A stretch of DNA of 64,000 nt, taken from positions 2,982 to 66,981 of the forward strand of contig DAOUDW010000038.1 of the NCBI GenBank assembly GCA_034430895.1, given 5' to 3'. Positions within the stretch are counted from its first letter, which is position 1, and each line of letters begins with the position of its first letter. The notes under the pieces were generated by a model. It was not told the DNA's origin, did not search any database, and was given only the letters and a program-made list of their open reading frames with translations. The stretch is from Anaerolineales bacterium (GTDB lineage: Bacteria; Chloroflexota; Anaerolineae; Anaerolineales; E44-bin32). Both the position numbers and the translations under genes were made by a program. This document shows positions 1 through 60,826 of this stretch, one piece after another.

Positions 1-79
1 TCTTCACTGTATCTGTCCTTAATATGCAGGTTCGTCCGGGAGGCTGAAACATGAATGTGGCTTGTGCGCCGCGAGCTAC

Positions 80-4593: not shown

Positions 4594-7371
4594 ATGACGA
4601 ATCAACCCCGTCTGTTTCTCATCGATGGTCATGCACTTGCATACCGCACGTACTTCGCATTGACGCGTGCGGGTGATCCCTCCCGCTGGATAACGAAATC
4701 CGGTGAGCCAACCGCCGGGACTTACGGTTTCGTATCCGTACTCCTTTCGCTTCTTGAACGAGAAGAACCGGAGTATCTCGCCGTCTCCTTCGATACCGGT
4801 CGAACATTCCGTGATGATCTTTTCGATGAATACAAAGCTACGCGTGAAAAAATGCCTGATGATTTGCGTCTGCAAATCGAACGAATTCGAGAGATCATTA
4901 CGGCATTTGGAATCCCCATTCTGGAGGCCGAGGGTTTCGAAGCAGATGATGTGCTCGGTACGGTAGCTCGAAAAGCGGCATCGCAGGATGTTCACACCAT
5001 CATCGTCACCGGAGATAGAGATCTCCTGCAGCTCGTCAGTGAAAACGTGACCATCCAGCTTTCCGGCCAGAAACTCTCCGAAGCCACGGACTATGGTCCG
5101 GAACAGGTGCGCAAACGCTATGGCCTCGAACCCGGGCAGCTGGTCGATTACAAAGCTCTTGTAGGCGACAGCAGCGACAACATCCCTGGCGTACGCGGCG
5201 TTGGGGAGAAAACAGCAACTTCGCTGCTGCAACAATATAAGAATCTGGATAATATCTTCGCCAATCTGGACGATGTTCCAACACGCTTCCGCAGTAAATT
5301 GGATGATGGTAGAGAAAGTGCATATCTGAGTAAAAAGCTGGGCCAAATCGAAACGGAAGTACCGATTGAATTCGATCTCGAAGCATGCCGCGCCCAGGCA
5401 TACAATCGGGACGAAATTGTCGACCTTTTTCGAGAACTTGAATTCCGCACATTACTCAACCGCATCCAAACCGACTCATCTGGCAGTGAACAACAGATGA
5501 GTTTGTTCGTCAGCGAGGAACAAACCCAACAAACACAAACCCGAACAGTCCACATCGTCGACAACGGCGAAAAACTCGACAACCTGATCCAGCGTCTTGA
5601 CGCGGCGGAACAGATTGCTTTCGATGTCGAAACGACCAGCACAGATGCGATCCAGGCCGAGCTGGTCGGAATCTCGCTTGCTACGCAGCCCGAAGAAGGC
5701 TTTTACATCCCGGTTGGGCATATCCCAGCCAAAGAAGGATCGCAGCTCGATCTAGATACTGTGCTCGAAGCGCTGCGCGCTCCCCTAACCGATCCGAAAA
5801 AGGGCAAAGTGGGTCACAATCTCAAGTATGATTACACGCTCCTCGCTCGTCATGGGCTTCAGGTATCGCCACTCAGCTTCGACACTATGCTGGCCGAATG
5901 GCTTTGCGATCCTGCTTCCCGCAATCTTGGTTTGAAGAGTCTGGCCTGGATTCGTCTGGGCGTCGAAATGACGGACATCGAAGCCCTCATCGGTCATGGA
6001 CGGAATCAACGCTCCATGGCCGTGGTCCCAATCTCAGAAGTCGCTCCGTATGCCGCAGCCGATGCCGAAATCTGTCTGCGGCTTCTTCCCCTCCTCCGGG
6101 AAGAACTTAAGCAAAAGCAGCAAACGAAATTGTTCCAGGAGCTTGAAATGCCGCTGATCCCCATTCTGGCCAGAATGGAGATGACCGGCATCAGCCTGAA
6201 CATCGACTTTCTGGAGCAACTTTCTAAGCAGTTAAATGATCAAATGGCTAAAATCGAAGACGAGATCTTCAAAGAAGCGGGAAGAACGTTCAACGTTAAC
6301 TCAACACAACAATTATCGATCGTCCTTTTCGACGATCTATCCCTCCAGCCACCCGATCGCGCCCGTCGAACTGCATCCGGTCATTACTCCACCGCTGCAT
6401 CTGTACTTGAAGAATTACGCAGCGCCCATCCAATCGTCGAACATATCCTCGCTTACCGTGAAATCACCAAAATTAAATCAACCTATGCGGATGCCCTCCC
6501 TCAACAAGTCAATCCGCAGACCGGTCGCGTCCATACTTCCTTCAACCAGACGGGTTCGGTAACCGGCCGACTGGCGTCTTCCAATCCTAATTTACAGAAC
6601 ATACCCGTGCGGACGGAGATAGGCCGTCAAATCCGACGGGCTTTCGTCGCCGAAAAAGGTCACACGCTGCTCAGCGTGGACTACTCACAAATCGAGCTGC
6701 GTATCGTCGCCCATCTATCCGAGGACAAAGCCATGCTGCAAGCCTTTCTCGACGATCAAGATATCCACAGCGCCACGGCAGCGGCCATTTTCGGCGTCGA
6801 TCCCGCTGACGTCTCCTCCGATCTGCGTCGGCGGGCAAAAGCAATCAACTTTGGATTGATCTACGGTATGAGCCCCTTCGGATTGACCCGAACCACGGAC
6901 CTAACCCTCGCTGAAGCCAAGGATTTTGTTAAGGCATACTTCGATCGCTTCCCCGGTGTGGAAAGATATCTCGAAGAAACCCGACAACAGGCCGAACAAG
7001 TCGGTTACGTTTCAACGCTGCTTGGTCGCCGACGATACTTCCCACAGCTGACCGCAGACGCTTCGGTATCCGAACAAGCTCGCGCTCGAGCGATGCGGGA
7101 AGCGATCAACGCCCCAATCCAAGGCACGGCCTCCGACATCATCAAAATTGCCATGATTCGACTTCCTGAAGCACTAGACGAGCACAAATTGAAAGCCAAC
7201 ATGCTGATTCAAGTACACGATGAGCTCGTCCTCGAGTGTCCCCAGAGTGAACTTGCAAGTACCTCCCAGACCGTACAACAAGTCATGCAAGATGCATGTG
7301 AGTTACGTGTGCCATTGAAAACCGATGCGAAAGCGGGAACGACCTGGGCAAGCATGAAACCGATGGAATGA
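4594..7371 (+). CDS. polA: DNA polymerase I
   Basis: 5'-nuclease N-terminus LFLIDGHALAYRTYFA; 3'-5' exonuclease FDVETTS; polymerase motifs DYSQIELR, RRRAKAINFGLIYG and QVHDELV. ATG at 4594 follows GGGAG. Confidence 0.97.
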   Translation: MTNQPRLFLIDGHALAYRTYFALTRAGDPSRWITKSGEPTAGTYGFVSVLLSLLEREEPEYLAVSFDTGRTFRDDLFDEYKATREKMPDDLRLQIERIREIITAFGIPILEAEGFEADDVLGTVARKAASQDVHTIIVTGDRDLLQLVSENVTIQLSGQKLSEATDYGPEQVRKRYGLEPGQLVDYKALVGDSSDNIPGVRGVGEKTATSLLQQYKNLDNIFANLDDVPTRFRSKLDDGRESAYLSKKLGQIETEVPIEFDLEACRAQAYNRDEIVDLFRELEFRTLLNRIQTDSSGSEQQMSLFVSEEQTQQTQTRTVHIVDNGEKLDNLIQRLDAAEQIAFDVETTSTDAIQAELVGISLATQPEEGFYIPVGHIPAKEGSQLDLDTVLEALRAPLTDPKKGKVGHNLKYDYTLLARHGLQVSPLSFDTMLAEWLCDPASRNLGLKSLAWIRLGVEMTDIEALIGHGRNQRSMAVVPISEVAPYAAADAEICLRLLPLLREELKQKQQTKLFQELEMPLIPILARMEMTGISLNIDFLEQLSKQLNDQMAKIEDEIFKEAGRTFNVNSTQQLSIVLFDDLSLQPPDRARRTASGHYSTAASVLEELRSAHPIVEHILAYREITKIKSTYADALPQQVNPQTGRVHTSFNQTGSVTGRLASSNPNLQNIPVRTEIGRQIRRAFVAEKGHTLLSVDYSQIELRIVAHLSEDKAMLQAFLDDQDIHSATAAAIFGVDPADVSSDLRRRAKAINFGLIYGMSPFGLTRTTDLTLAEAKDFVKAYFDRFPGVERYLEETRQQAEQVGYVSTLLGRRRYFPQLTADASVSEQARARAMREAINAPIQGTASDIIKIAMIRLPEALDEHKLKANMLIQVHDELVLECPQSELASTSQTVQQVMQDACELRVPLKTDAKAGTTWASMKPME

Positions 7372-7501
7372 AACCTACCCGGAGTTGGATGTTTGCGAGA
7401 GCAGCAGATGGATAACGTTCTTTCCGAATCACTCAGCGACCGATGATGACTTATGCTATACTCGCCTCGCTGTAGAATTTATATAACAAGAAGATCGTGA
7501 T

Positions 7502-9856
7502 ATGACCGAACAGCAAAGCCTTTTCGAAGAATCCATGCGCTTGGGGCACTCTGCTGCCTGGGACCTAAAATGGGACCGGGCGATCGAGTTTTACCGCAAA
7601 GCCCTGGTGCAAGCGCCGGATGATCCCAATGCCCTTACCAGTTTGGGATTGGCATTGCTGGAGACCGAGCAGTATAAGGAAGCGCTCTCGGTTTATCACA
7701 AGGCTGCGAAGGTTTCCACCAACGATCCCATCCCACTCGAACGGTGTGCCGAGATCTTCGAACGTCTGGGGCAGATCAGCGATGCGGTGATACAGCGTAA
7801 CGCCGCCGCCCAACGCTACCTGGCCCGTAAAGATGCCCAGAAAGCCATCGAAAACTGGGTACACATTGCACGGCTGACGCCTGATGATCTCCACACGCGC
7901 TCCACATTGGCGGTCACGTATGAACGAACTGGAAATGCCCGCCAGGCGGTATATGAATACATCAATGTCGCCTCCATCCTGCAACGAGCCGGGAACACCG
8001 AACGCGCCATCGAAGCCGTACAACGTGCCTTACGCCTCGTCCCAGGACATCCGGAAGCAGGCAAAGCTTTACGCGCCCTCAAAGTCGGTGAAACCCTGGC
8101 GCCTCCATCACAACCACGCGGCGCAACTGCACCGCTGCGCATGGCCAAAGTCCAAGAATACATCAAGGCCGAGTCTGTAGAAAAGGAAGAAGAAGACGAT
8201 GAGGTGGCCGACCCGGAAATCGCGGCACAGCGTGATGCGCTCAAGATTTTAGCCGGCTTGCTCTTCGATGAACCAAAGGGGGATGATGATGACAAAATCG
8301 ATGACTCAGGAAATGGGTCATCCGGCCGATCCATTCTTACAGGAGGTTTAAGCCTTTCGGGCCGGAAATCCGTCGGTCAACCTCAGATGTATCGCTATCT
8401 CGGACAAGCGATCGATCTACAAACTCGCGGCAAAGATAAAGAAGCCATAAAAGAATTTGAACGGGCGATAAAGGCGGGGTTGGATCATCGCGCCGCACAT
8501 TATAACGTCGGCATCTTGTATAAAAAACAGGAAGACTATCAAGCCGCCAAAAAGAGCCTGTCCGCCGCTTTGGGTTACGCGGATTTGGATTTGGGCACCA
8601 ATCTTTCGCTCGGACGAATCGCCCGAATCGAGAAAGACCTGCCTGAAGCCGCCCGGTACTTGCTCCAGGCATTGAGAATCGCCGATTCGCTTTCTGTCGA
8701 TTCGAGCCAATCCTCTTCACTAAATCAATTTTACGATGCCATGCTCGTCTCTCAGGAAGAAGGCAATGAAGAAGAACTGGATCGCATCGTGGAAAGCACA
8801 CTCAATTTTCTGAGTGGACCAGATTGGATGCGCCGTCTACGTCAAGCACGCATGCAGTTGGAAAGTGAAGGAACGGAAAGCTCCATGGTCGTTCCTATCG
8901 CAGAAATGCTCGCCGTCGGCGGAACCGACCGTGTGCTTCAATCCCTTGGGAAAATCGACGATCTTCTCGTTCGAGAATTGTACACAGCCGCAATGGAAGA
9001 AGCGATGCTAACACTCGATCACGCCCCATCCTATCTGGCACTCCACATGAGAATGGCAGAGATCATGATCCGCAGCGGTCGCAAGGAAGCCGGACTTGAA
9101 AAAATGGGGATCGTCGCCGAAACACATCGCGTACGAGGCGAAACACCCCAAGCGGCGGATGTCTATGCAAAGATTATTCGCGAAGCTCCGATCAACATCC
9201 CGGCCAGGAACCGTTTGATCGAACTCTATATTCAACAAGATCAACACAAGGAAGCCCTGGAAAATTACTTCAACCTGGCGGAAATTTATCAACAGATGGC
9301 AGAAATCGATTCGTCCAGGAAAGCCTTAGCTGCTGCTCTCAGCCTGGCGCAGGATTCATCCGTCGACCGCGAATGGTCTGTAAAGATCTTGCGGGAAATG
9401 GGCGATATCGACCTTTCTCGCCTGGATTGGCGCCGTGCCCTACGCGTGTATTCGCAAATCCGCACCTTGGATCCACACGATGTTAAAGCACGAACGCATG
9501 TGATCGATTTGAATTTACGACTCGCCCAGGACAACCAGGCCGCTCAGGAATTGGATGGTTATCTCGAATATCTCGTCCAACATGATCGCGGCCAGGACGC
9601 CTTAACGTTCATCGAAGAACTGGCGCGTGAACATCCTGGAAAACAGATTCTTCATGAACGCCTTGCCGAGGCGTATCTCGCCGCTGGTCGTACCGCGGAT
9701 GCCATCTCACAATTCGACGCGCTGGGCGAGATCCTTCTCGATTCTGGAAATAACGACGAAGCGATTCGAACGATTGAAAGGATCATATCGCTTGGACCGC
9801 CCGATATCGAAGGCTACCAGGAACTGCTCCGCAATTTAAAGGGGGGTCAAGCGTAG
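7502..9856 (+). CDS. TPR-repeat protein
   Basis: Repeated 34-residue helical A/Y/L patterns throughout, with an acidic low-complexity insert. No catalytic motif recognised. Confidence 0.75.
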   Translation: MTEQQSLFEESMRLGHSAAWDLKWDRAIEFYRKALVQAPDDPNALTSLGLALLETEQYKEALSVYHKAAKVSTNDPIPLERCAEIFERLGQISDAVIQRNAAAQRYLARKDAQKAIENWVHIARLTPDDLHTRSTLAVTYERTGNARQAVYEYINVASILQRAGNTERAIEAVQRALRLVPGHPEAGKALRALKVGETLAPPSQPRGATAPLRMAKVQEYIKAESVEKEEEDDEVADPEIAAQRDALKILAGLLFDEPKGDDDDKIDDSGNGSSGRSILTGGLSLSGRKSVGQPQMYRYLGQAIDLQTRGKDKEAIKEFERAIKAGLDHRAAHYNVGILYKKQEDYQAAKKSLSAALGYADLDLGTNLSLGRIARIEKDLPEAARYLLQALRIADSLSVDSSQSSSLNQFYDAMLVSQEEGNEEELDRIVESTLNFLSGPDWMRRLRQARMQLESEGTESSMVVPIAEMLAVGGTDRVLQSLGKIDDLLVRELYTAAMEEAMLTLDHAPSYLALHMRMAEIMIRSGRKEAGLEKMGIVAETHRVRGETPQAADVYAKIIREAPINIPARNRLIELYIQQDQHKEALENYFNLAEIYQQMAEIDSSRKALAAALSLAQDSSVDREWSVKILREMGDIDLSRLDWRRALRVYSQIRTLDPHDVKARTHVIDLNLRLAQDNQAAQELDGYLEYLVQHDRGQDALTFIEELAREHPGKQILHERLAEAYLAAGRTADAISQFDALGEILLDSGNNDEAIRTIERIISLGPPDIEGYQELLRNLKGGQA

Positions 9857-24302: not shown

Positions 24303-24983
24303 TTAGTCCAGCGCTTCTGAGATGTCGTGTGCAGCTTTTCTTCTCCAACGCTTGCGGAAAGTAGCGATGCGATTCAAAGCGCTGTAACGAAGCCTGCTGG
24401 CAGCTGTGCGGATGGGTGAAAGCCGCAGAACGAGCAGCAAGACAACGATCGCCATATAAACCAGCGGCACACGAACACCCGTTTTCACCAGCCAAGCATA
24501 GTGCACTGTCGCCAGGAATGCACTGAGGTATACGAAACGATGGAGCCGTTTCCATTTCTTTCCAAGCCTGCGCTGCCAACCTCGGGTAGAGGTAAATACA
24601 AGGGGTATGAGCAGCAGACCAGATGCGAGGCCCACGAGTGCGTAGCGTTTTTCGAAAAGTGCGTCCTTCAACAACCCAAAATCGAAAGCGTAGTCGATAC
24701 CGATGAAAATGAAGAAATGCACACCCACATAAAGTGCCGCGTAGAGCCCCAGCCACTTACGCATCGGGATCAATTGCCGCAGGCCAAATATTGTGTTCAA
24801 CGGGGTGATCGCAAGCAAGACGATCAATAACACCAGCGCGGTTTTACCCGTCCGCAATGTCGCCGCCTGTATGGGATTGGCCGTGAGGTCGTTTTGAACC
24901 CAATCGAAGAGCAGCAAACCCATTGGCGTCAACGCTGCTGCATGTGTGACGAGTTGTATCCCGGCGCGTCGAGTGTTTGTCAT
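24303..24983 (-). CDS. msrQ: protein-methionine-sulfoxide reductase heme-binding subunit MsrQ
   Basis: Six-TM ferric-reductase-like protein with conserved His in TM helices. Overlaps the msrP stop. Confidence 0.85.
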   Translation of the reverse strand: MTNTRRAGIQLVTHAAALTPMGLLLFDWVQNDLTANPIQAATLRTGKTALVLLIVLLAITPLNTIFGLRQLIPMRKWLGLYAALYVGVHFFIFIGIDYAFDFGLLKDALFEKRYALVGLASGLLLIPLVFTSTRGWQRRLGKKWKRLHRFVYLSAFLATVHYAWLVKTGVRVPLVYMAIVVLLLVLRLSPIRTAASRLRYSALNRIATFRKRWRRKAAHDISEALD

Positions 24984-25927
24984 CAGAAAAATATCGAAGG
25001 ACTCTGATTGGGATAAAGAGAAGATACTTCTTCGGTATAGCCGTTGAACAGCAAGGTTTCTCTTCGTCCGCTTTCTCCGATACGGCGTTCCGTCGCCTGA
25101 GACCAGCGTGGATGGGGAACCTCAGGATTAACATTGGCGTAAAATCCGTACTCATTGGGCGCGGCCGCCATCCAAAGAGATGTCGGCTGTTCCGCAACCA
25201 GATCGATCTTGACGATCGATTTGATGCTCTTAAACCCGTACTTCCAGGGCACGACCAAACGGATGGGCGCACCATTTTGAGCGAGCATACTTTTGCCATA
25301 CAGTCCGGTGGCCATAATCGTCAAATCATGCATGGCCTCATCGATACGCAGCCCCTCCACGTACGGCCAGGTGTACCAGGGGCTGTTCTGCCCCGGCATC
25401 TGATCCGGATCATAGAGTGTCTCAAAACGCACATACTTGGCGTCCGCCATTGGTTCGACATCCTGCAACAAACTGGCCAGGGGAAAGCCATTCCACGGGA
25501 TCACCATGGACCAACCTTCTACGCACCGCATGCGATAGATCCGCTCTTCGTCCATGAAGCTTCGTAAATCATCAATATCGTAGACCTTTGGATTATGGAC
25601 CAAACCACCCACTTCGACCTGCCAGGGAGAAGTCCGAAAATTCCCTATGAGGTCAGCGACGCCGGTTTTGTCGACGGTAAATTCGTAAAAATTGTTGAAA
25701 TTCGTGACATCAATAAAGCTGGTAAGCGGATCACCCAATTCGTCAACCGTTGCCGTTGTCTCCGGCGGCATTTCATCTTCGCTTGTTGAAATAACAGGCG
25801 TTGTTCTTCCGCCACAAGCAGCCAGGAGGATCGAGCCCGAGGTCAGTATCCCCGCCCCCTTCAAGAAATCTCGTCTCGAATAATACAAATGCTCCGGCGT
25901 AATCTCTGAGGAACGTATTTTCACCAT
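24983..25927 (-). CDS. msrP: protein-methionine-sulfoxide reductase catalytic subunit MsrP (molybdopterin)
   Basis: Tat signal [10 protein letters not shown] and a YedY-like core ([20 protein letters not shown]). ATG at 25927 behind GGAGG. Confidence 0.9.
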
Positions 25928-27083: not shown

Positions 27084-27459
27084 TGTCCACCTCCTCCCGG
27101 GAGATTATCGCATAGATCAAAACGAAGTCCAAGAAATGCACGATAATAAATTGCTTGTCGATAACCATCGAATCGGATCTGCATGACGATTTCGATAGTC
27201 GTTCCATCGATTGTAACACCTGTCTCCGGGCAAAGCCTCACCACTGCAGATCAAGTAGAGAGAACACGATAACACTGGCTGTGACAGATTTTCCACAACC
27301 TAAAACGACAACTCCTTCGATTTGGTTGCCTTTCCCAAAGCATCTGCGATATACTCGCTTTTGAGTTAATCGTCACTATCTATATGCACCCGAACCACAA
27401 ACCAGGAGCGCTCCTCCCGGTTGTGTATAAGAATGAGTTGAAGAATAACGGAGGATGTC

Positions 27460-27696
27460 ATGGCAAAAATCACCATCGAGTATTGCGCCGCTTGACATTA
27501 CACAGATCGAGCTATCGGTGCGATGGCTGAAGTATTGAAGAAATATGAAATGCAAATTGATGAAATTACGCTGATCCCCTCCGACGGAGGTCGATTTGAA
27601 GTAACCGTTGATGGCAAATTGGTCTATTCGAAACTCGCCACAGGACGCCACGTCGAATCAGGTGAGACAGCGAAATGCGTTGGTGAAAAGCTTTAG
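27460..27696 (+). CDS. SelW/Rdx-family redox protein with in-frame UGA (candidate selenocysteine) in a CxxU motif
   Basis: GGAGGA at 27450-27455, ATG at 27460. Translation is MAKITIEYCAA-TGA(27493-27495)-HYTDRA...LIPSDGGRFEVTVDGKLVYSKLATGRH...; the TAG stop at 27694 overlaps the trpS SD. The UGA aligns with the second Cys of the family CxxC/CxxU motif. Confidence 0.8.
27503..27529 (+). promoter_or_regulatory. candidate bacterial SECIS hairpin
   Basis: CAGAUCG (27503-27509) pairs with CGAU..CUG (27521-27529) with a GG bulge. The 11-nt loop contains GGU and starts about 15 nt after the UGA. Hand-folded only. Confidence 0.35.
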
Positions 27697-27708
27697 GAGG
27701 AAACACCG

Positions 27709-28698
27709 TTGACAAAGAAGAAGGGACGCGTCTTTTCCGGCGCGCGGCCAACCGGGCGCCAACACCTGGGGAATTATTTAGGCGCAATCAAGAATTACGT
27801 GGCGCTTCAAGACGAATTCGAATGTATCTACTGCATCGTCGATCTGCACGCCCTGACGACCTTAGATACCACCAAATCCCTAAAAACGAACACCTACGAG
27901 ATGGCACTCGATTGGCTTGCCGCCGGATTGCGGCCAGAGGAAACGATCATTTTCATTCAATCGCATGTCCCGGAAGTCACTGAGCTGCATACCATGCTTT
28001 CCATGGTCGTGGGACTCGGCAAGTTAACCGACTTACCCACCTTTAAAGAGAAAGCACGCCAGCAGCCGCACAACGTAAATTACGGCCTGGTTGGCTATCC
28101 GATATTGATGGCGGCCGATATCACCCTCTATAAAGCGGGATTCGTCCCGGTTGGGATCGATCAAGCGCCGCACCTCGAATTCACCCGCGAGGTCGTACGT
28201 TCGTTCAATCACCGTTATCAAACCGATGTGTTAATCGAACCGCAGATGAAGAGCACGAAAATTCCCAAGGTTCTCGGCACTGATGGTGTGCATAAAATGG
28301 GTAAAAGCCTGAACAATCACATCGAACTGGCCTCTACACCGGAAGAGACCACCCAACGCGTAATGACTATGGTGACCGATCCACAGCGAAAACGTCGATC
28401 CGATCCGGGGGACCCGGACGTGTGCAACGTTTTCACGATGCACAAAGTCTTCTCCACAGACGAAGACGTACAAGAGATCGACGCCGAGTGCCGCCGCGCC
28501 GGCATCGGCTGTGTGGACTGTAAGAAACGATTTGCGGAGAACCTGAACGCGCATCTTGCTCCCTTCCGAGAGAAACGATCCAAACTCGGTGAAAACCCCG
28601 AGCAGGTATGGGACATCCTGGCAGATGGCGCAAAACGGGCCAATCAAATCGCCGAAGAAACCATGATCGAGGTCCGCCAGGCGGTCGGCTTGCCGTAA
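27709..28698 (+). CDS. trpS: tryptophan--tRNA ligase
   Basis: TTG start behind AGGAGG. Motifs GARPTGRQHLGNYLG (HIGH-like) and KMGKS (KMSKS). Confidence 0.95.
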   Translation: MTKKKGRVFSGARPTGRQHLGNYLGAIKNYVALQDEFECIYCIVDLHALTTLDTTKSLKTNTYEMALDWLAAGLRPEETIIFIQSHVPEVTELHTMLSMVVGLGKLTDLPTFKEKARQQPHNVNYGLVGYPILMAADITLYKAGFVPVGIDQAPHLEFTREVVRSFNHRYQTDVLIEPQMKSTKIPKVLGTDGVHKMGKSLNNHIELASTPEETTQRVMTMVTDPQRKRRSDPGDPDVCNVFTMHKVFSTDEDVQEIDAECRRAGIGCVDCKKRFAENLNAHLAPFREKRSKLGENPEQVWDILADGAKRANQIAEETMIEVRQAVGLP

Positions 28699-28767: not shown

Positions 28768-29217
28768 ATGCGTGCCGTTCTACAACGCGTTCGCCGAGGG
28801 CGCGTGTCGGTTGAAAACGAGACCATCGCAGAGATTAATCAAGGTCTAGTGATTCTTTTAGGGATTGGCCAAGAGGATACAGCAAATGAAGCACGCTGGT
28901 TGGCGGAAAAATGCGCCTCGCTGCGTATCTTCGAGGACGATGATGGCAAGACGAATCTTTCCATCCAGGATATCGGGGGAGAAGCGATCGTGGTCTCCCA
29001 ATTCACGCTGTATGCCGACACACGCAAAGGACGCCGGCCGAGTTTCATACATGCCGCAGCTCCGGATGTGGCAGAACCGCTCGTCGACAAATTTGCCGCA
29101 CACCTACACGCACAAGGGGTGCCGACTCAAACGGGCGTATTTGGCGCGCACATGCTGGTGGAAATCGAAAACGACGGGCCGGTCACTATTCTGCTCGAAC
29201 GTCATAATCCACAATAA
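28768..29217 (+). CDS. dtd: D-aminoacyl-tRNA deacylase
   Basis: [16 protein letters not shown] and GPVT motifs, about 150 aa. Confidence 0.92.
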
Positions 29218-30465: not shown

Positions 30466-32058
30466 CTAAATCACCGCCGTGCCCTTGGTGTCATCGCGAT
30501 AGTGGCAACCCCGACTGACGCGGTTGTGCTGCGCGGCCGCGGCGATGATGATGGCGGCCTGCACACTGTGACGCAAACCAATCAAGGCATCATTTACACG
30601 CGTCGTGCGGTAGAAAACCTCGATGTCCTCTTTCAGGTGATGTAAATCCCGCAAGGCGCGCGCCAGACGCCGGGTAGAGCGTACCAACCCGACGTAGTGC
30701 CACATGGTGTGCTGTATGGTACGTATGTCGCGCCAGATCAAGGCCGGGTCGGCCTCTTCCTCCAAACCCTCCTCTTCCCATCGGGGAACCTCGTCTGGCG
30801 TGACCTGGTCAACTACGCCGCACCTGGCGATGTCCTGCGCAGCACGTACTCCCCATACGAGACCGTCCACGAGTGACGTGCTCGCCAATCGATTGGCGCC
30901 GTGAACGCCGTTGCACGCCACCTCCCCTACGGCATAAAGGTTTTGAACGCTCGCGCGTGCCCACTCATCTGTCCACACCCCGCCGCAGAAATAATGTGCA
31001 GCAGGCACAACCGGAATGGGCTGACGGGTGATGTCCAGACCAAGATTCAAGCAGCGCGCATGGATCGTGGGAAATCGCTCGCGGATCGCATCGGCCGGCA
31101 TGGCAGAGTGGATATCGAGTAAAACATGAGGGTAGCCGTTCTCGACCATCTCACGGTGGATCGCCCGGGAGACGATATCTCGCGGCGCCAGATCGCCCCA
31201 CTCCGGGTCGTACCGCGCCATAAACGCTTCCCCGGAGGGTATCAACAGGCGCCCTCCCTCACCCCGGACCGCCTCGGAAATGAGAAACCCCTCAGCGCCT
31301 GGCGCGGCAAGTGTCGTCGGGTGGAACTGTACGTACTCGGCATTGATGACCCGCGCGCCTGCACGATACGCCATCGCCAGTCCATCCCCGCGAGCGCCTT
31401 CCGGATTGGTGGTATGACGATATATCCGCCCCAACCCGCCGCTGGCGAGGATGGTCTTTCCCGCCAGGTAACGGCGGACACTGCGCCTTTCCTGCTCGTA
31501 AACATAGGCACCATAGCACGTGATCGGCTCGTAAACACTGAGTGGATCGTTGGCGTGATGCGGAAAGGTGATCAGATCGACGGCGGTGGCTGCAGGCACG
31601 ATCTGCACGTTGGGCTGTGCTCGCAAGGTGGCAACCATGGCTTGAATGATCGCCTTTCCCGTCGAATCCCCGACATGTAGAATGCGTGGACAGGTGTGCG
31701 CCGCCTCCTGGCCGAATGATAATTGGCCATCGGAGGCACGATCGAAGGACACCCCACAGTACTCGATCAGCATCTCGTGAATCAGCGCAGGACCTTGTTC
31801 GGCAATAATGCGAGCCGTGGAAGGCAGACTCAACCCCGCGCCCGCCGCCAGAATATCGTCCACAAGTAAATCAGGGCTATCCTCTTCACCCAAAGTGACG
31901 ATTCCCCCTTGCGCGTAGCGTGTATTGCTTTCTTCGGGCTCGGAGGCTCGTGTAATTACCACGACCTGACGCTCTCGATCCTGCGCCAGACGCAATGCTG
32001 TTGCGGCACCTGCAATGCCACAACCAATCACGAGCACATCCGCACGAACGGGAGTCAC
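30466..32058 (-). CDS. nadB: L-aspartate oxidase
   Basis: FAD motif VLVIGCGIAGA, YAQGGI and a flavoprotein core. Overlaps the nadA stop by 4 nt. Confidence 0.95.
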   Translation of the reverse strand: MTPVRADVLVIGCGIAGAATALRLAQDRERQVVVITRASEPEESNTRYAQGGIVTLGEEDSPDLLVDDILAAGAGLSLPSTARIIAEQGPALIHEMLIEYCGVSFDRASDGQLSFGQEAAHTCPRILHVGDSTGKAIIQAMVATLRAQPNVQIVPAATAVDLITFPHHANDPLSVYEPITCYGAYVYEQERRSVRRYLAGKTILASGGLGRIYRHTTNPEGARGDGLAMAYRAGARVINAEYVQFHPTTLAAPGAEGFLISEAVRGEGGRLLIPSGEAFMARYDPEWGDLAPRDIVSRAIHREMVENGYPHVLLDIHSAMPADAIRERFPTIHARCLNLGLDITRQPIPVVPAAHYFCGGVWTDEWARASVQNLYAVGEVACNGVHGANRLASTSLVDGLVWGVRAAQDIARCGVVDQVTPDEVPRWEEEGLEEEADPALIWRDIRTIQHTMWHYVGLVRSTRRLARALRDLHHLKEDIEVFYRTTRVNDALIGLRHSVQAAIIIAAAAQHNRVSRGCHYRDDTKGTAVI

Positions 32059-33104
32059 TTGCTTACCTCCAGCATACGCTCCAAAGCGATCCGGGCGTCC
32101 CGGGCAGTATCTGCAGGGACGGTTATCTGATTGATGGACTTACCCGCTGCAAGGCCTTCCAATATCCGTTCGACTTTCTGCAATGTGATCAGATTCATGT
32201 CATGACAGCTTGCTGTCGTTGATGACAGGAGTACGATCTGTTTGTCAGGATTTTCCTGGTCGAGACGGTTGACAAGATTGAATTCGGTGCCGACGGTCCA
32301 CTTGCTCCCGGCAGGGGAAGCCTCGATCTGTTGAATGATGAAAGACGTCGAACCCGCTTCGTCCGCCTGATCGACAACTTCCATCGAGCATTCCGGATGA
32401 ACGATCACGCGAACGTCAGGTTCCTGACTGCGCCATCGGATCACATCCTCCACTGTAAAAACCTGATGCACGTTACACCAGCCGCGCCAAAGAAAAATAC
32501 GAGCATCCCGAATTGCTTCCGTCTCAAAGCCTCCGCGAATAAGTTTGGGATCCCAGAGCAACATCTCGTCGAGCGGGATGCCCATCTTCTTGCCCGTATT
32601 ACGGCCGAGATGTTGATCGGGGAAAAAGAACACATAGGGTCGCTGCTCGAAAGCCCACGTGAGCATTTTCTCGGCGTTCGATGAAGTACATACAAGACCG
32701 TTATGACGACCACAGAATGCCTTCAACGATGCCGTAGAGTTGACATAGGTTATCGGCGTGACTTCATCTTCGACATCCAGCACCTCGCCCAGTTGTCCCC
32801 AGACTTGCTCTACATCGGTTAAATCGGCCATGTCCGCCAGGGGACAACCTGCGTCAAGATCGGGTAAGAATACGCGCTGCCCGGGTTGGGCAAGAATGGC
32901 TGCGGTTTCTGCCATGAAGTGTACGCCACAGAAGACGATATACTCCGCCTCCCGGCTTTTAACGGCGTCAAACACCAGTTTCAACGAATCGCCCCTGAAA
33001 TCCGAAACCTGGATCACCTCGTCTCGTTGGTAATGATGCCCGAGGATTACCAATCGTTTTCCCAACTCGGATTTCAGTTCCAAAACACGATCGACGGGTT
33101 GCAT
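32055..33104 (-). CDS. nadA: quinolinate synthase
   Basis: ILGHHYQ, VHFMAETA and HPEC motifs. Confidence 0.93.
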   Translation of the reverse strand: MQPVDRVLELKSELGKRLVILGHHYQRDEVIQVSDFRGDSLKLVFDAVKSREAEYIVFCGVHFMAETAAILAQPGQRVFLPDLDAGCPLADMADLTDVEQVWGQLGEVLDVEDEVTPITYVNSTASLKAFCGRHNGLVCTSSNAEKMLTWAFEQRPYVFFFPDQHLGRNTGKKMGIPLDEMLLWDPKLIRGGFETEAIRDARIFLWRGWCNVHQVFTVEDVIRWRSQEPDVRVIVHPECSMEVVDQADEAGSTSFIIQQIEASPAGSKWTVGTEFNLVNRLDQENPDKQIVLLSSTTASCHDMNLITLQKVERILEGLAAGKSINQITVPADTARDARIALERMLEVSK

Positions 33105-33107
33105 AGA

Positions 33108-33941
33108 TTAAATCCTCATACTGATGTCAAGCGCTGGTGCGGAATGGGTTAGTGCACCGATCGAGATGAAATCCACACCGGTTGCCGCGACGTCTGCAAC
33201 ATAGGACAAATCCACGTTGCCCGATGCTTCCAACGGTGTTCGGCCCGCCGCTAACTGAACGGCTGCGCGCATCATTTCAAGATCCATGTTATCCAACATG
33301 ATCCGATCCACATTGAGAGTCAGCGCCTCTTCCAATTGGTCCATACGCTCCACTTCGACCTCGATGGGCAAATCAGGGTATGCCTGCTGGGCTTGTTTGA
33401 CAGCCGCTGAGATTCCACCGGCAGCGGCTATATGGTTGTCCTTGATTAGAATCATATCGTAGAGGCTGATCCGATGGTTCTCGCCACCCCCCATTCGCAC
33501 GGCGTACTTCTCAAGCCGACGATATCCGGGGTGTGTTTTCCTCGTATCCAGGATCGCGGCGTTGCTGCCCTCAATCGCCCGCACGAAAGCTTGCGTGTAG
33601 GTTGCGATTCCGGAAAGGTGCTGTAGAAAATTCAAGACGATGCGTTCTGCCGCCAATAATGTTCTCCCCGGTCCGGAAACCTCAGCAATCACATCGCCGA
33701 CCTGCACCACAGCCCCGTCCTGTACGTGGGTTGTAAAATGCAGCGAAGCATCCACGCGTTCGAATACCGCTTTGGCGATGGGCAAACCGGCGATGACGCC
33801 GGTCTCTTTTGCAACAACATCTCCGTGAAGTGACTGACCGGAAGCGATCACGGCCTCGGATGTCGCATCCCCGGGTCCGATATCTTCTGCAATCGCCAAT
33901 TCGATAAGCGGTTGTGCGGCCTGAATCAACTCATCTGTCAT
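33108..33941 (-). CDS. nadC: nicotinate-nucleotide pyrophosphorylase (carboxylating)
   Basis: TRKTHPGYR, KYAVRMGGGENHR and IKDNH. Confidence 0.93.
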   Translation of the reverse strand: MTDELIQAAQPLIELAIAEDIGPGDATSEAVIASGQSLHGDVVAKETGVIAGLPIAKAVFERVDASLHFTTHVQDGAVVQVGDVIAEVSGPGRTLLAAERIVLNFLQHLSGIATYTQAFVRAIEGSNAAILDTRKTHPGYRRLEKYAVRMGGGENHRISLYDMILIKDNHIAAAGGISAAVKQAQQAYPDLPIEVEVERMDQLEEALTLNVDRIMLDNMDLEMMRAAVQLAAGRTPLEASGNVDLSYVADVAATGVDFISIGALTHSAPALDISMRI

Positions 33942-36120: not shown

Positions 36121-36546
36121 TCAATCCGTGTCGGTTGGTTTTGCACGCCGCAGCTTCTTGATCTGCGAACGCCTTCGCTTTTCGTGCAAACGACGTTCAC
36201 TGGCCGCTCGACTGGGTTTCGTTTTCCTGCGAGGCTTTTTGCGTTGTGCTGCTCGTCGGATGAGTTTGCTTAAACGATCGATCGCATCCTTGCGGTTGCG
36301 GGTTTGTGTGCGGAAACGGCGGGCGTTGATGATCAGAATGCCGTCGTTGTTGATCTGGTTACCAGCCAGTCGAATCAAACGCGCACGCACGTCCTCAGGC
36401 AATGAGGTTGACTCACGAACATCGAAACGCAGTTGCACCGCTGTGGCAACACGATTGACATTCTGCCCACCCGGACCGGCAGCGCGAACAAAATCAAAGT
36501 GCAATTCGTTTTCATCGATTGCGATATCTTGGGTCACAGAGATCAT
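36121..36546 (-). CDS. arfB: alternative ribosome-rescue factor ArfB (peptidyl-tRNA hydrolase)
   Basis: GPGGQNVN (GGQ motif) and a basic C-terminal tail. Confidence 0.9.
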   Translation of the reverse strand: MISVTQDIAIDENELHFDFVRAAGPGGQNVNRVATAVQLRFDVRESTSLPEDVRARLIRLAGNQINNDGILIINARRFRTQTRNRKDAIDRLSKLIRRAAQRKKPRRKTKPSRAASERRLHEKRRRSQIKKLRRAKPTDTD

Positions 36547-60671: not shown

Positions 60672-60747
60672 TGGTGGACCCAGTGGGATTCGAACCCACG
60701 ACCTCCTCAATGCCATTGAGGCGCGCTCCCAACTGCGCCATGGGCCC
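60672..60747 (-). tRNA. tRNA-Ala (anticodon GGC), CCA encoded
   Basis: Hand-folded 76-nt cloverleaf: acceptor GGGCCCA/TGGGTCC with G3:U70, anticodon loop AUGGCAU, T-arm GTGGGTTCGAATCCCAC. Confidence 0.93.
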
Positions 60748-60753
60748 TTAGTG

Positions 60754-60826
60754 TGGACCTGGCGGGATTCGAACCCGCGACCTCATCAGTGCGATTGATG
60801 CGCGCTCCCAACTGCGCTACAGGCCC
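60754..60826 (-). tRNA. tRNA-Ala (anticodon CGC), CCA not encoded
   Basis: Hand-folded 73-nt cloverleaf: acceptor GGGCCTG/CAGGTCC with G3:U70, anticodon loop AUCGCAC, T-arm GCGGGTTCGAATCCCGC. The 3' flank is CAC. Confidence 0.93.

Follow-up and report, generated by a model that had tools for sequence, protein, structure and literature searches.

Is a short reading frame interrupted by an in-frame TGA the remnant of a broken gene, or does it encode a complete protein in which the UGA is decoded as selenocysteine (Sec)? This question is raised by positions 27460-27696 (+ strand) of a 64,000-nucleotide (nt) stretch of contig DAOUDW010000038.1 from an Anaerolineales bacterium (GenBank assembly GCA_034430895.1), which was analysed at its full length and is referred to below as the window. 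An earlier note, made from the letters of this DNA, had described there a 78-codon SelW/Rdx-like gene preceded by a strong Shine-Dalgarno (SD) sequence, with a TGA at the second redox position of its CxxU motif. The frame and its SD were confirmed at these coordinates: the coding sequence reads MAKITIEYCAA-TGA-HYTDRAIGAMAEVLKKYEMQIDEITLIPSDGGRFEVTVDGKLVYSKLATGRHVESGETAKCVGEKL-TAG, beginning MAKITIEYCAA-TGA-HYTDRAIG and closing GEKL-TAG, with 78 sense positions followed by the stop, and the SD GGAGGA (27450-27455, +) lies 4 nt 5' of ATG 27460, an SD-like motif being present in 78 of 81 orthologous loci. The in-frame TGA occupies 27493-27495 (+), is followed by C (UGA-C context), and corresponds to residue 12 in the motif C9-A-A-U12. 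The gene had looked unannotated because the list of open reading frames (ORFs) holds only a 57-amino-acid (aa) piece at 27523-27696; the TGA does hide the gene from the ORF track, as the note had supposed. Our analysis indicates that 27460-27696 is, with high confidence, an intact gene for a SelW-like (Rdx, SelT/SelW/SelH) redox protein of thioredoxin fold with the active site Cys9-x-x-Sec12, in which UGA is read as Sec.

A protein-database search returned 235 relatives, of which the 120 best were listed. Nearly all of these 120 had been called as fragments of 56-68 aa that start just past the UGA position; four were full-length forms with Cys (P0015, P0016, P0017, and P0063), and two entries (P0018 and P0025) carried W at the UGA codon, the DNA fetched for P0018 reading TGA. 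A scan of one genome per species detected relatives in 595 places, and the best 80 were analysed; all of these came from metagenome-assembled genomes of Anaerolineae/Chloroflexota, and they were 55-86% identical to the window protein. Among these best 80 species-level loci, TGA stood at exactly the CxxU codon in 80/80, with the same gene architecture throughout (85/85 copies when duplicates were included). The surroundings of the UGA were conserved as IEYCA[AV]-U-HYTDRA, with a nearly invariant C at +4 across orthologs. In the alignments the UGA coincided with Cys in the four full-length Cys forms and in the PDB structures 2FA8 and 3DEX, so that it occupies precisely the second redox position, filled by Cys in the Cys forms and in the solved CxxC Rdx structures. 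These four Cys forms and 80 TGA loci provide the Cys-type and presumed Sec-type orthologs that the earlier note had thought worth looking for.

Substitutions were then compared by codon position on the two sides of the UGA. Mean pairwise divergence at positions 1, 2, and 3 was 0.26, 0.21, and 0.61 over the nine codons before the UGA, and 0.30, 0.17, and 0.60 over the fifty codons after it; the corresponding values in a 5' non-coding control flank were 0.72, 0.74, and 0.72. These results showed that purifying selection spans the UGA in at least 80 species and that both flanks are coding in one frame. The codon-position pattern matches on either side of the UGA, which neither a pseudogene nor a genuine stop would yield. 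A decaying pseudogene, or a loss of coding potential past the TGA, had been named beforehand as observations that would speak against a selenoprotein gene; the data clearly show the opposite, with coding conserved on both sides. In one related locus (L092), two Rdx paralogs were found in tandem, a Cys form (CAPC) at 1152-1400 and then a Sec form (CFT-TGA-HYTDRA) at about 1440-1694, followed by dtd and with no trpS. This pair may capture a stage of Sec/Cys interconversion that followed a duplication.

Profile tests of the window protein were carried out with U replaced by C. It scored 73.4 bits against PF10262 (Rdx; cut-off 22.6), covering profile positions 1-72 of 74 and hence nearly the full model, and 56.2 bits against TIGR02174 ("CXXU_selWTH"; cut-off 34.2). 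Both scores exceed the curated cut-offs, and the membership in the Rdx (SelW/SelT/SelH) family that had been recognized from motifs was thereby borne out. The top-scoring NCBIfam model was NF041051 (SelTWH_Campy), yet its score of 73.4 bits is below its 88-bit cut-off, and the window protein therefore lies outside that equivalog. The protein could be aligned to the bacterial SelW-related crystal structures 2FA8, 3DEX, 2OBK, 2OKA, 2P0G, and 2OJL (E-value for 2FA8, 1e-10), with the CxxC of 2FA8 and 3DEX in the columns of C9 and U12; the CxxC of the Cys orthologs was likewise aligned to C9-A-A-U12. The fold was judged on the AlphaFold model of P0017, a Cys ortholog 55% identical to the window protein, which has a predicted local distance difference test score (pLDDT) of 96.9. 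This model superposed on 2FA8, 2OBK, and 2P0G with template-modelling (TM) scores of 0.88-0.91 and a root-mean-square deviation of about 1 Å, and also on mouse SelW (2NPB; TM 0.66) and thereafter on thioredoxins. By way of this ortholog, the window protein is predicted to have the thioredoxin-like beta-alpha-beta-beta-beta-alpha fold. In the model the redox motif lies between strand 1 (residues 3-10) and helix 1 (residues 16-33), and therefore the 57-aa product starting at Met22 would be devoid of strand 1 and of the active site.

As a bacterial Sec insertion sequence (SECIS) element we took a stem-loop that directly follows the UGA and whose small apical loop contains G and lies roughly 16-37 nt away. 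The minimum free energy structure of the 60 nt starting at the UGA contained a hairpin within the coding sequence at 27507-27530 (+), that is, 12-35 nt after the UGA and near the 8-34 nt at which a hairpin with a G-containing loop had been drawn before. It is formed by an 8-bp helix, in which 27510-27517 pairs with 27521-27528, plus two outer pairs with a bulged G, and by the apical loop GUG (27518-27520), whose GU lies at +26/+27 counted from the U of UGA. Comparison of 81 distinct orthologous sequences revealed two alternative registers situated 4 nt apart (loci L005-L084, positions +15 to +36); in one or the other, 80 of the sequences form 5 or all 6 of 6 pairs. Register A (stem +19..24 with +30..35) was found in 56 sequences, the window included, and register B (stem +15..20 with +26..31, loop GU at +22/23) in 24. 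When the whole gene was scanned with a sliding hairpin, a complete 6-bp hairpin occurred in a majority of sequences only at these positions (60% at +19). G26 and U27 were invariant in 56/56 register-A sequences, and double changes were detected at five of eight pairs of this register, as in the series GCCAUC/GAUGGC, GCUGUC/GGCAGC, and GCGGUG/CACCGC. Compensatory cells in register A numbered 53, versus 18.4 +/- 6.7 in shuffles (0/500 shuffles as high), and those in register B nine, versus 1.7 in shuffles. Entry P0018, translated with W, likewise has TGA and a perfect stem, again compensated. The RNA stem forces coupled choices in the peptide, with Ile...Met in some proteins versus Val...Ala in others. 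By its geometry, invariant GU, and covariation, the hairpin qualifies as a putative bacterial SECIS element that is both conserved and covarying.

If UGA is decoded as Sec in this lineage, genes of the Sec machinery should be found in it. Authentic E. coli SelA, SelB, and SelD were used as tblastn queries. Four related loci (L021, L023, L025, and L079) were found to have a selD homolog, located 2-3 kb past the SelW-like gene. In three of them, L023 (about 5689-6234), L025 (about 5625-6221), and L079 (about 5641-6221), selD itself contains an in-frame TGA at the equivalent of the catalytic Cys17 (CAG-U-ASKLS); the selD of L021 was not readable in frame at this site. When metagenomes were scanned with Anaerolineae SelD as the seed, 16 close relatives were found to share the TGA, and more distant relatives to have Cys. 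Both UGA genes, SelW-like and selD, were present together on four metagenome contigs, with the selD TGA at 10058 in L095 and L120, at 9706 in L099, and at 9762 in L105. Judging from these reading frames, the lineage maintains at least two conserved genes with a predicted UGA-encoded Sec. A UGA-containing selD is a hallmark of Sec decoders, and some Chloroflexi had previously been counted among these. Since related Anaerolineae contigs carry such a selD, absence of the Sec machinery in the window organism is unlikely, and its genome would be expected to contain selA, selB, selC, and selD. Complete islands of tRNA-Sec, selD, selA, and selB were detected only in a more distant soil lineage, whose SelD is 53-60% identical. 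One 7.6-kb contig (L164; SelD about 53% identical) carries a SelW-like gene with TGA, tRNA-Sec, selD, and selA in this order at 4861-7582. The sole match to SelB, in L068, turned out to be EF-Tu and was rejected. In the window, 17 of 43 long ORFs end in TGA; the code is therefore standard, and recoding is a local event.

Several observations weigh against the Sec interpretation. Searches by tblastn, ARAGORN, and gene calls detected no selA, selB, selD, or tRNA-Sec in the 64-kb window; ARAGORN found no tRNA-Sec in the window or in the Anaerolineae loci examined, and the E. coli queries found no selA or selB in the Anaerolineae contigs examined. Scanning the whole window with Rfam at gathering thresholds gave no SECIS or other relevant family, and a permissive scan of 27380-27760 gave no SECIS either, its sole match, to a long non-coding RNA, being due to chance (E = 4.8). 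The single-sequence folding energy of the hairpin is unremarkable (z = -1.1), and its significance therefore comes from the comparative data alone. The registers were assigned by pairing, and consequently the percentages of paired cells, 90.8% in register A (versus 15-56% with slid partners) and 98.6% in register B, are inflated, an effect that does not reach the double-change counts or the positional-uniqueness scan. The Cys forms serve as a negative control on two loci only: both genes fetched (TGT and TGC) had not kept the hairpin, with 3-5 of 6 pairs. Beyond these points, contig look-ups spanning 5196-64000 of the window, which yielded no sequence past either of its ends, and the 10-kb flanks on two other long Anaerolineae contigs contained no sel genes, a scan of the window for further CxxU/UxxC selenoprotein genes gave nothing convincing, and the literature on Sec machinery in Anaerolinea was uninformative.

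At the level of sequence, the locus displays every feature expected of a bacterial selenoprotein gene, and the family is a known one. According to the mechanism that we propose, ribosomes would start at ATG 27460 behind the strong SD; at the UGA at 27493, the stem-loop 27507-27530, with its GU at +26/27, would recruit SelB.GTP.Sec-tRNA(Sec), Sec would be inserted instead of termination taking place, and translation would proceed to the TAG at 27694. Sec insertion itself and the binding of SelB to the hairpin are thus predictions, and the SelW-like product would presumably act as a thiol/selenol oxidoreductase.

Downstream of the SelW-like gene and on its strand lie trpS (27709-28698, +; 329 aa, TTG start; TIGR00233 at 300 bits), encoding a tryptophanyl-tRNA synthetase (TrpRS), and dtd (28768-29217, +; 149 aa; gene call and PF02580 match), which codes for a D-aminoacyl-tRNA deacylase and is the third gene of a conserved cluster. 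The TAG of the SelW-like gene (27694-27696) overlaps the SD AGGAGGA (27695-27701, +) that serves the trpS TTG start at 27709, leaving a gap of 12 nt, and no terminator-like site was found on the + strand in this 12-nt junction. The overlap suggests, from the sequence, translational coupling or an operon junction. A possible sigma-70-like promoter, TTGCCT-18-TATACT (27326-27355, +), was detected upstream by a consensus scan; it is weak, matching 9/12 positions, and sites of this kind were no more frequent in the region than expected from shuffling. A same-strand trpS lies downstream of the SelW-like gene in 60 other loci, of about 73 with enough downstream sequence, and a dtd homolog was found by tblastn in 70 loci; the gap between the SelW-like gene and trpS reaches up to 200 nt in some loci, and some loci, such as L092, lack a downstream trpS. 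The order SelW-like, trpS ([4Fe-4S]-type), dtd is thus strongly conserved, and the operon-like arrangement with trpS that the earlier note had read from the overlap holds up both in the window and across these loci. The SelW-like gene is probably co-transcribed with trpS and dtd, and perhaps translationally coupled with them.

The TrpRS of the window contains, in its anticodon-binding domain, the motif C239-x21-C261-x6-C268-x2-C271 (Cys codons at 28423, 28489, 28510, and 28519), which fits the published TrpRS signature C-x(21-24)-C-x6-C-x2-C (PMC2954223). Its best PDB match was the Thermotoga maritima enzyme 2G36, with all four Cys ligands of the [4Fe-4S] cluster aligned. The 4-Cys motif was present in 49 of 55 SelW-linked trpS genes of related loci. 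In the six other loci (L038, L040, L060, L061, L076, and L077), which belong to one Anaerolineae subclade, the same slot is occupied by a different TrpRS of 336 aa, about 36% identical and with no 4-Cys motif; L027, whose SelW-like protein is very similar to those of this subclade, has retained the 4-Cys TrpRS. This looks like an in-place replacement of the TrpRS subtype in which the adjacency was preserved. The persistent adjacency of the SelW-like gene and trpS is the sole unexpected feature of the locus, and may stem either from a functional link or simply from operon inertia. One form that such a link might take is that the SelW-like selenoprotein is a dedicated partner of TrpRS, either keeping the [4Fe-4S] cluster of the anticodon domain or nearby thiols reduced, or coupling UGA decoding and the selenium or redox state to the availability of Trp-tRNA, which is the near-cognate competitor at UGA. 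We regard this proposal as speculative and rather improbable. If it were true, it would explain why the gene is adjacent to trpS and followed by dtd in most of the Anaerolineae examined, even where the TrpRS subtype has been swapped, and it would give a first concrete function to a bacterial Rdx protein.

The same junction admits another reading, which is compatible with the Sec interpretation: the UGA-containing ORF could also be a leader that senses selenium or redox state; in that case, how efficiently Sec is inserted at codon 12 would set the flow of ribosomes to the stop/SD junction and thereby tune TrpRS. This reading would fit both the overlap of the TAG with the trpS SD at 12 nt from the start and the location of the SelW-like gene right before trpS in 60 other loci, even with a different TrpRS subtype in the slot. 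The protein is strongly conserved at the amino-acid level across all 78 residues, and therefore the product itself is selected; in addition, trpS is not found downstream in loci such as L092, and intergenic gaps of up to 200 nt weaken an obligate coupling. A leader role is accordingly considered distinctly unlikely.

It is very unlikely that the UGA is read through without Sec, by a near-cognate tRNA-Trp, as Cys, or through a lineage-specific reassignment of UGA. The two W translations (P0018 and P0025) and the UGA-C context, which is one of leaky termination, would agree with such a reading, as would the finding that no gene of the Sec machinery lies in the 64 kb of this genome that were analysed. 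The W calls come from the genetic code that the gene caller had chosen, because TGA is an ordinary stop in 17/43 long ORFs. Moreover, all non-UGA homologs and the solved structures have Cys as the second redox residue, and Trp would destroy the motif; simple leak-through needs no covarying hairpin with SECIS geometry, and related contigs contain a selD that itself carries UGA. The remaining alternative, a broken or shortened gene in which translation truly ends at the TGA and the cell makes the 57-aa piece from ATG 27523 alone, or nothing, agrees with the 57-62 aa fragment annotated by gene callers in every source and with the failure to see Sec machinery in the 64-kb window, but it is extremely improbable and effectively refuted by the comparative data, since 80/80 species keep the SD, the TGA, and the 11 codons that precede it, with coding-type substitutions, ATG 27523 has no preceding SD, the 57-aa fragment would have neither strand 1 of the Rdx fold nor its CxxU active site, and a decaying pseudogene would not hold one identical stop across lineages down to about 55% protein identity.

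SelW-like proteins and bacterial SECIS elements located within ORFs have a history of two decades. The Sargasso Sea survey found the SelW-like CXXU proteins to be its most abundant selenoprotein family; they are counted among 25 bacterial selenoprotein families, of which they are among the most abundant and longest known, and few Cys homologs of them occur in Sec-using organisms (PMC1088965, PMC1794560). The window gene resembles the bacterial SelW-like (CXXU) selenoproteins catalogued by Zhang and Gladyshev in having the same domain of about 75-80 residues, the same N-terminal strand followed by CxxU with UGA at the second redox position, and the same directly downstream SECIS hairpin with G in a small apical loop, and Cys homologs are likewise a minority. 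Unlike the catalogued members, it occurs in Anaerolineae (Chloroflexota) within a conserved trpS/dtd cluster, and its clade has two hairpin registers 4 nt apart; our literature search found no paper on the SelW-like family in Anaerolineae (Chloroflexota). The SECIS of E. coli fdhF has the same UGA-C context and a stem-loop right after the UGA within the coding sequence, with loop GGUC and its GU at +23/24 by the same measure, compared with +26/27 (register A) or +22/23 (register B) in the window clade; the hairpin of this clade differs from it in having no sequence similarity and a loop GUG or GGUGC, and that of the window also by its simple 8-bp stem with two outer pairs and a bulged G; it would be a putative SelB target. 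The Cys-type Rdx structures (2FA8, which is Atu0228, 3DEX, 2OBK, 2OKA, 2P0G, and 2OJL) can be aligned over residues 3-67 with their CxxC in the same columns; they differ in having Cys instead of Sec, in their length of about 100-108 residues, and in being about 30-35% identical. Mouse SelW (2NPB) shares the Rdx fold and CxxU and is distant, with 18% identity in the structural alignment, and eukaryotic SelW relies on a SECIS in the 3' untranslated region together with SBP2 and eEFSec, in contrast to the hairpin within the ORF of the window gene.

Other features were observed in the window. Two tandem tRNA-Ala genes (anticodons GGC and CGC), 5 nt apart, lie at 60672-60826 (-). Neighbouring genes at 24303-25927, 30466-33941, and 36121-36546 (all -) include a pair, arranged similarly to MsrPQ, in which a molybdopterin-oxidoreductase domain is combined with a ferric-reductase-like membrane domain, as well as a nadB-nadA-nadC cluster and a gene for a small RF-1-domain (ArfB-like) protein. 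The end of the window, 62-64 kb, matches independent contigs at 100% identity. Identical genes are found on contigs of SRR8556697 and of JGI 3300031356, 3300031358, 3300031575, and 3300031654, and the nearest genomes are DAOUEK01 and DAOULU01.

Truncation of UGA genes of this kind by gene callers is a familiar artefact. In L174 (GCA_003327455.1), L175 (GCA_034430715.1), and most of the 120 best matches listed, only a fragment of 57-62 aa without the active site is annotated, under the names 'Rdx family protein', 'selenoprotein W-related protein', or 'hypothetical protein'. The gene thus exposes a systematic annotation error, in which most of the database entries found are stumps of 57-62 aa, NCBI assemblies included. 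To the broader biology it adds little, being real but ordinary for specialists. For the organism, the gene indicates that the Anaerolineae bacterium of the window and most of its relatives decode UGA as Sec and need selenium, which makes it a marker of selenium use in Anaerolineae, and the very stable cluster of SelW-like, TrpRS ([4Fe-4S] type), and Dtd genes offers a lead, as it hints at a functional link.

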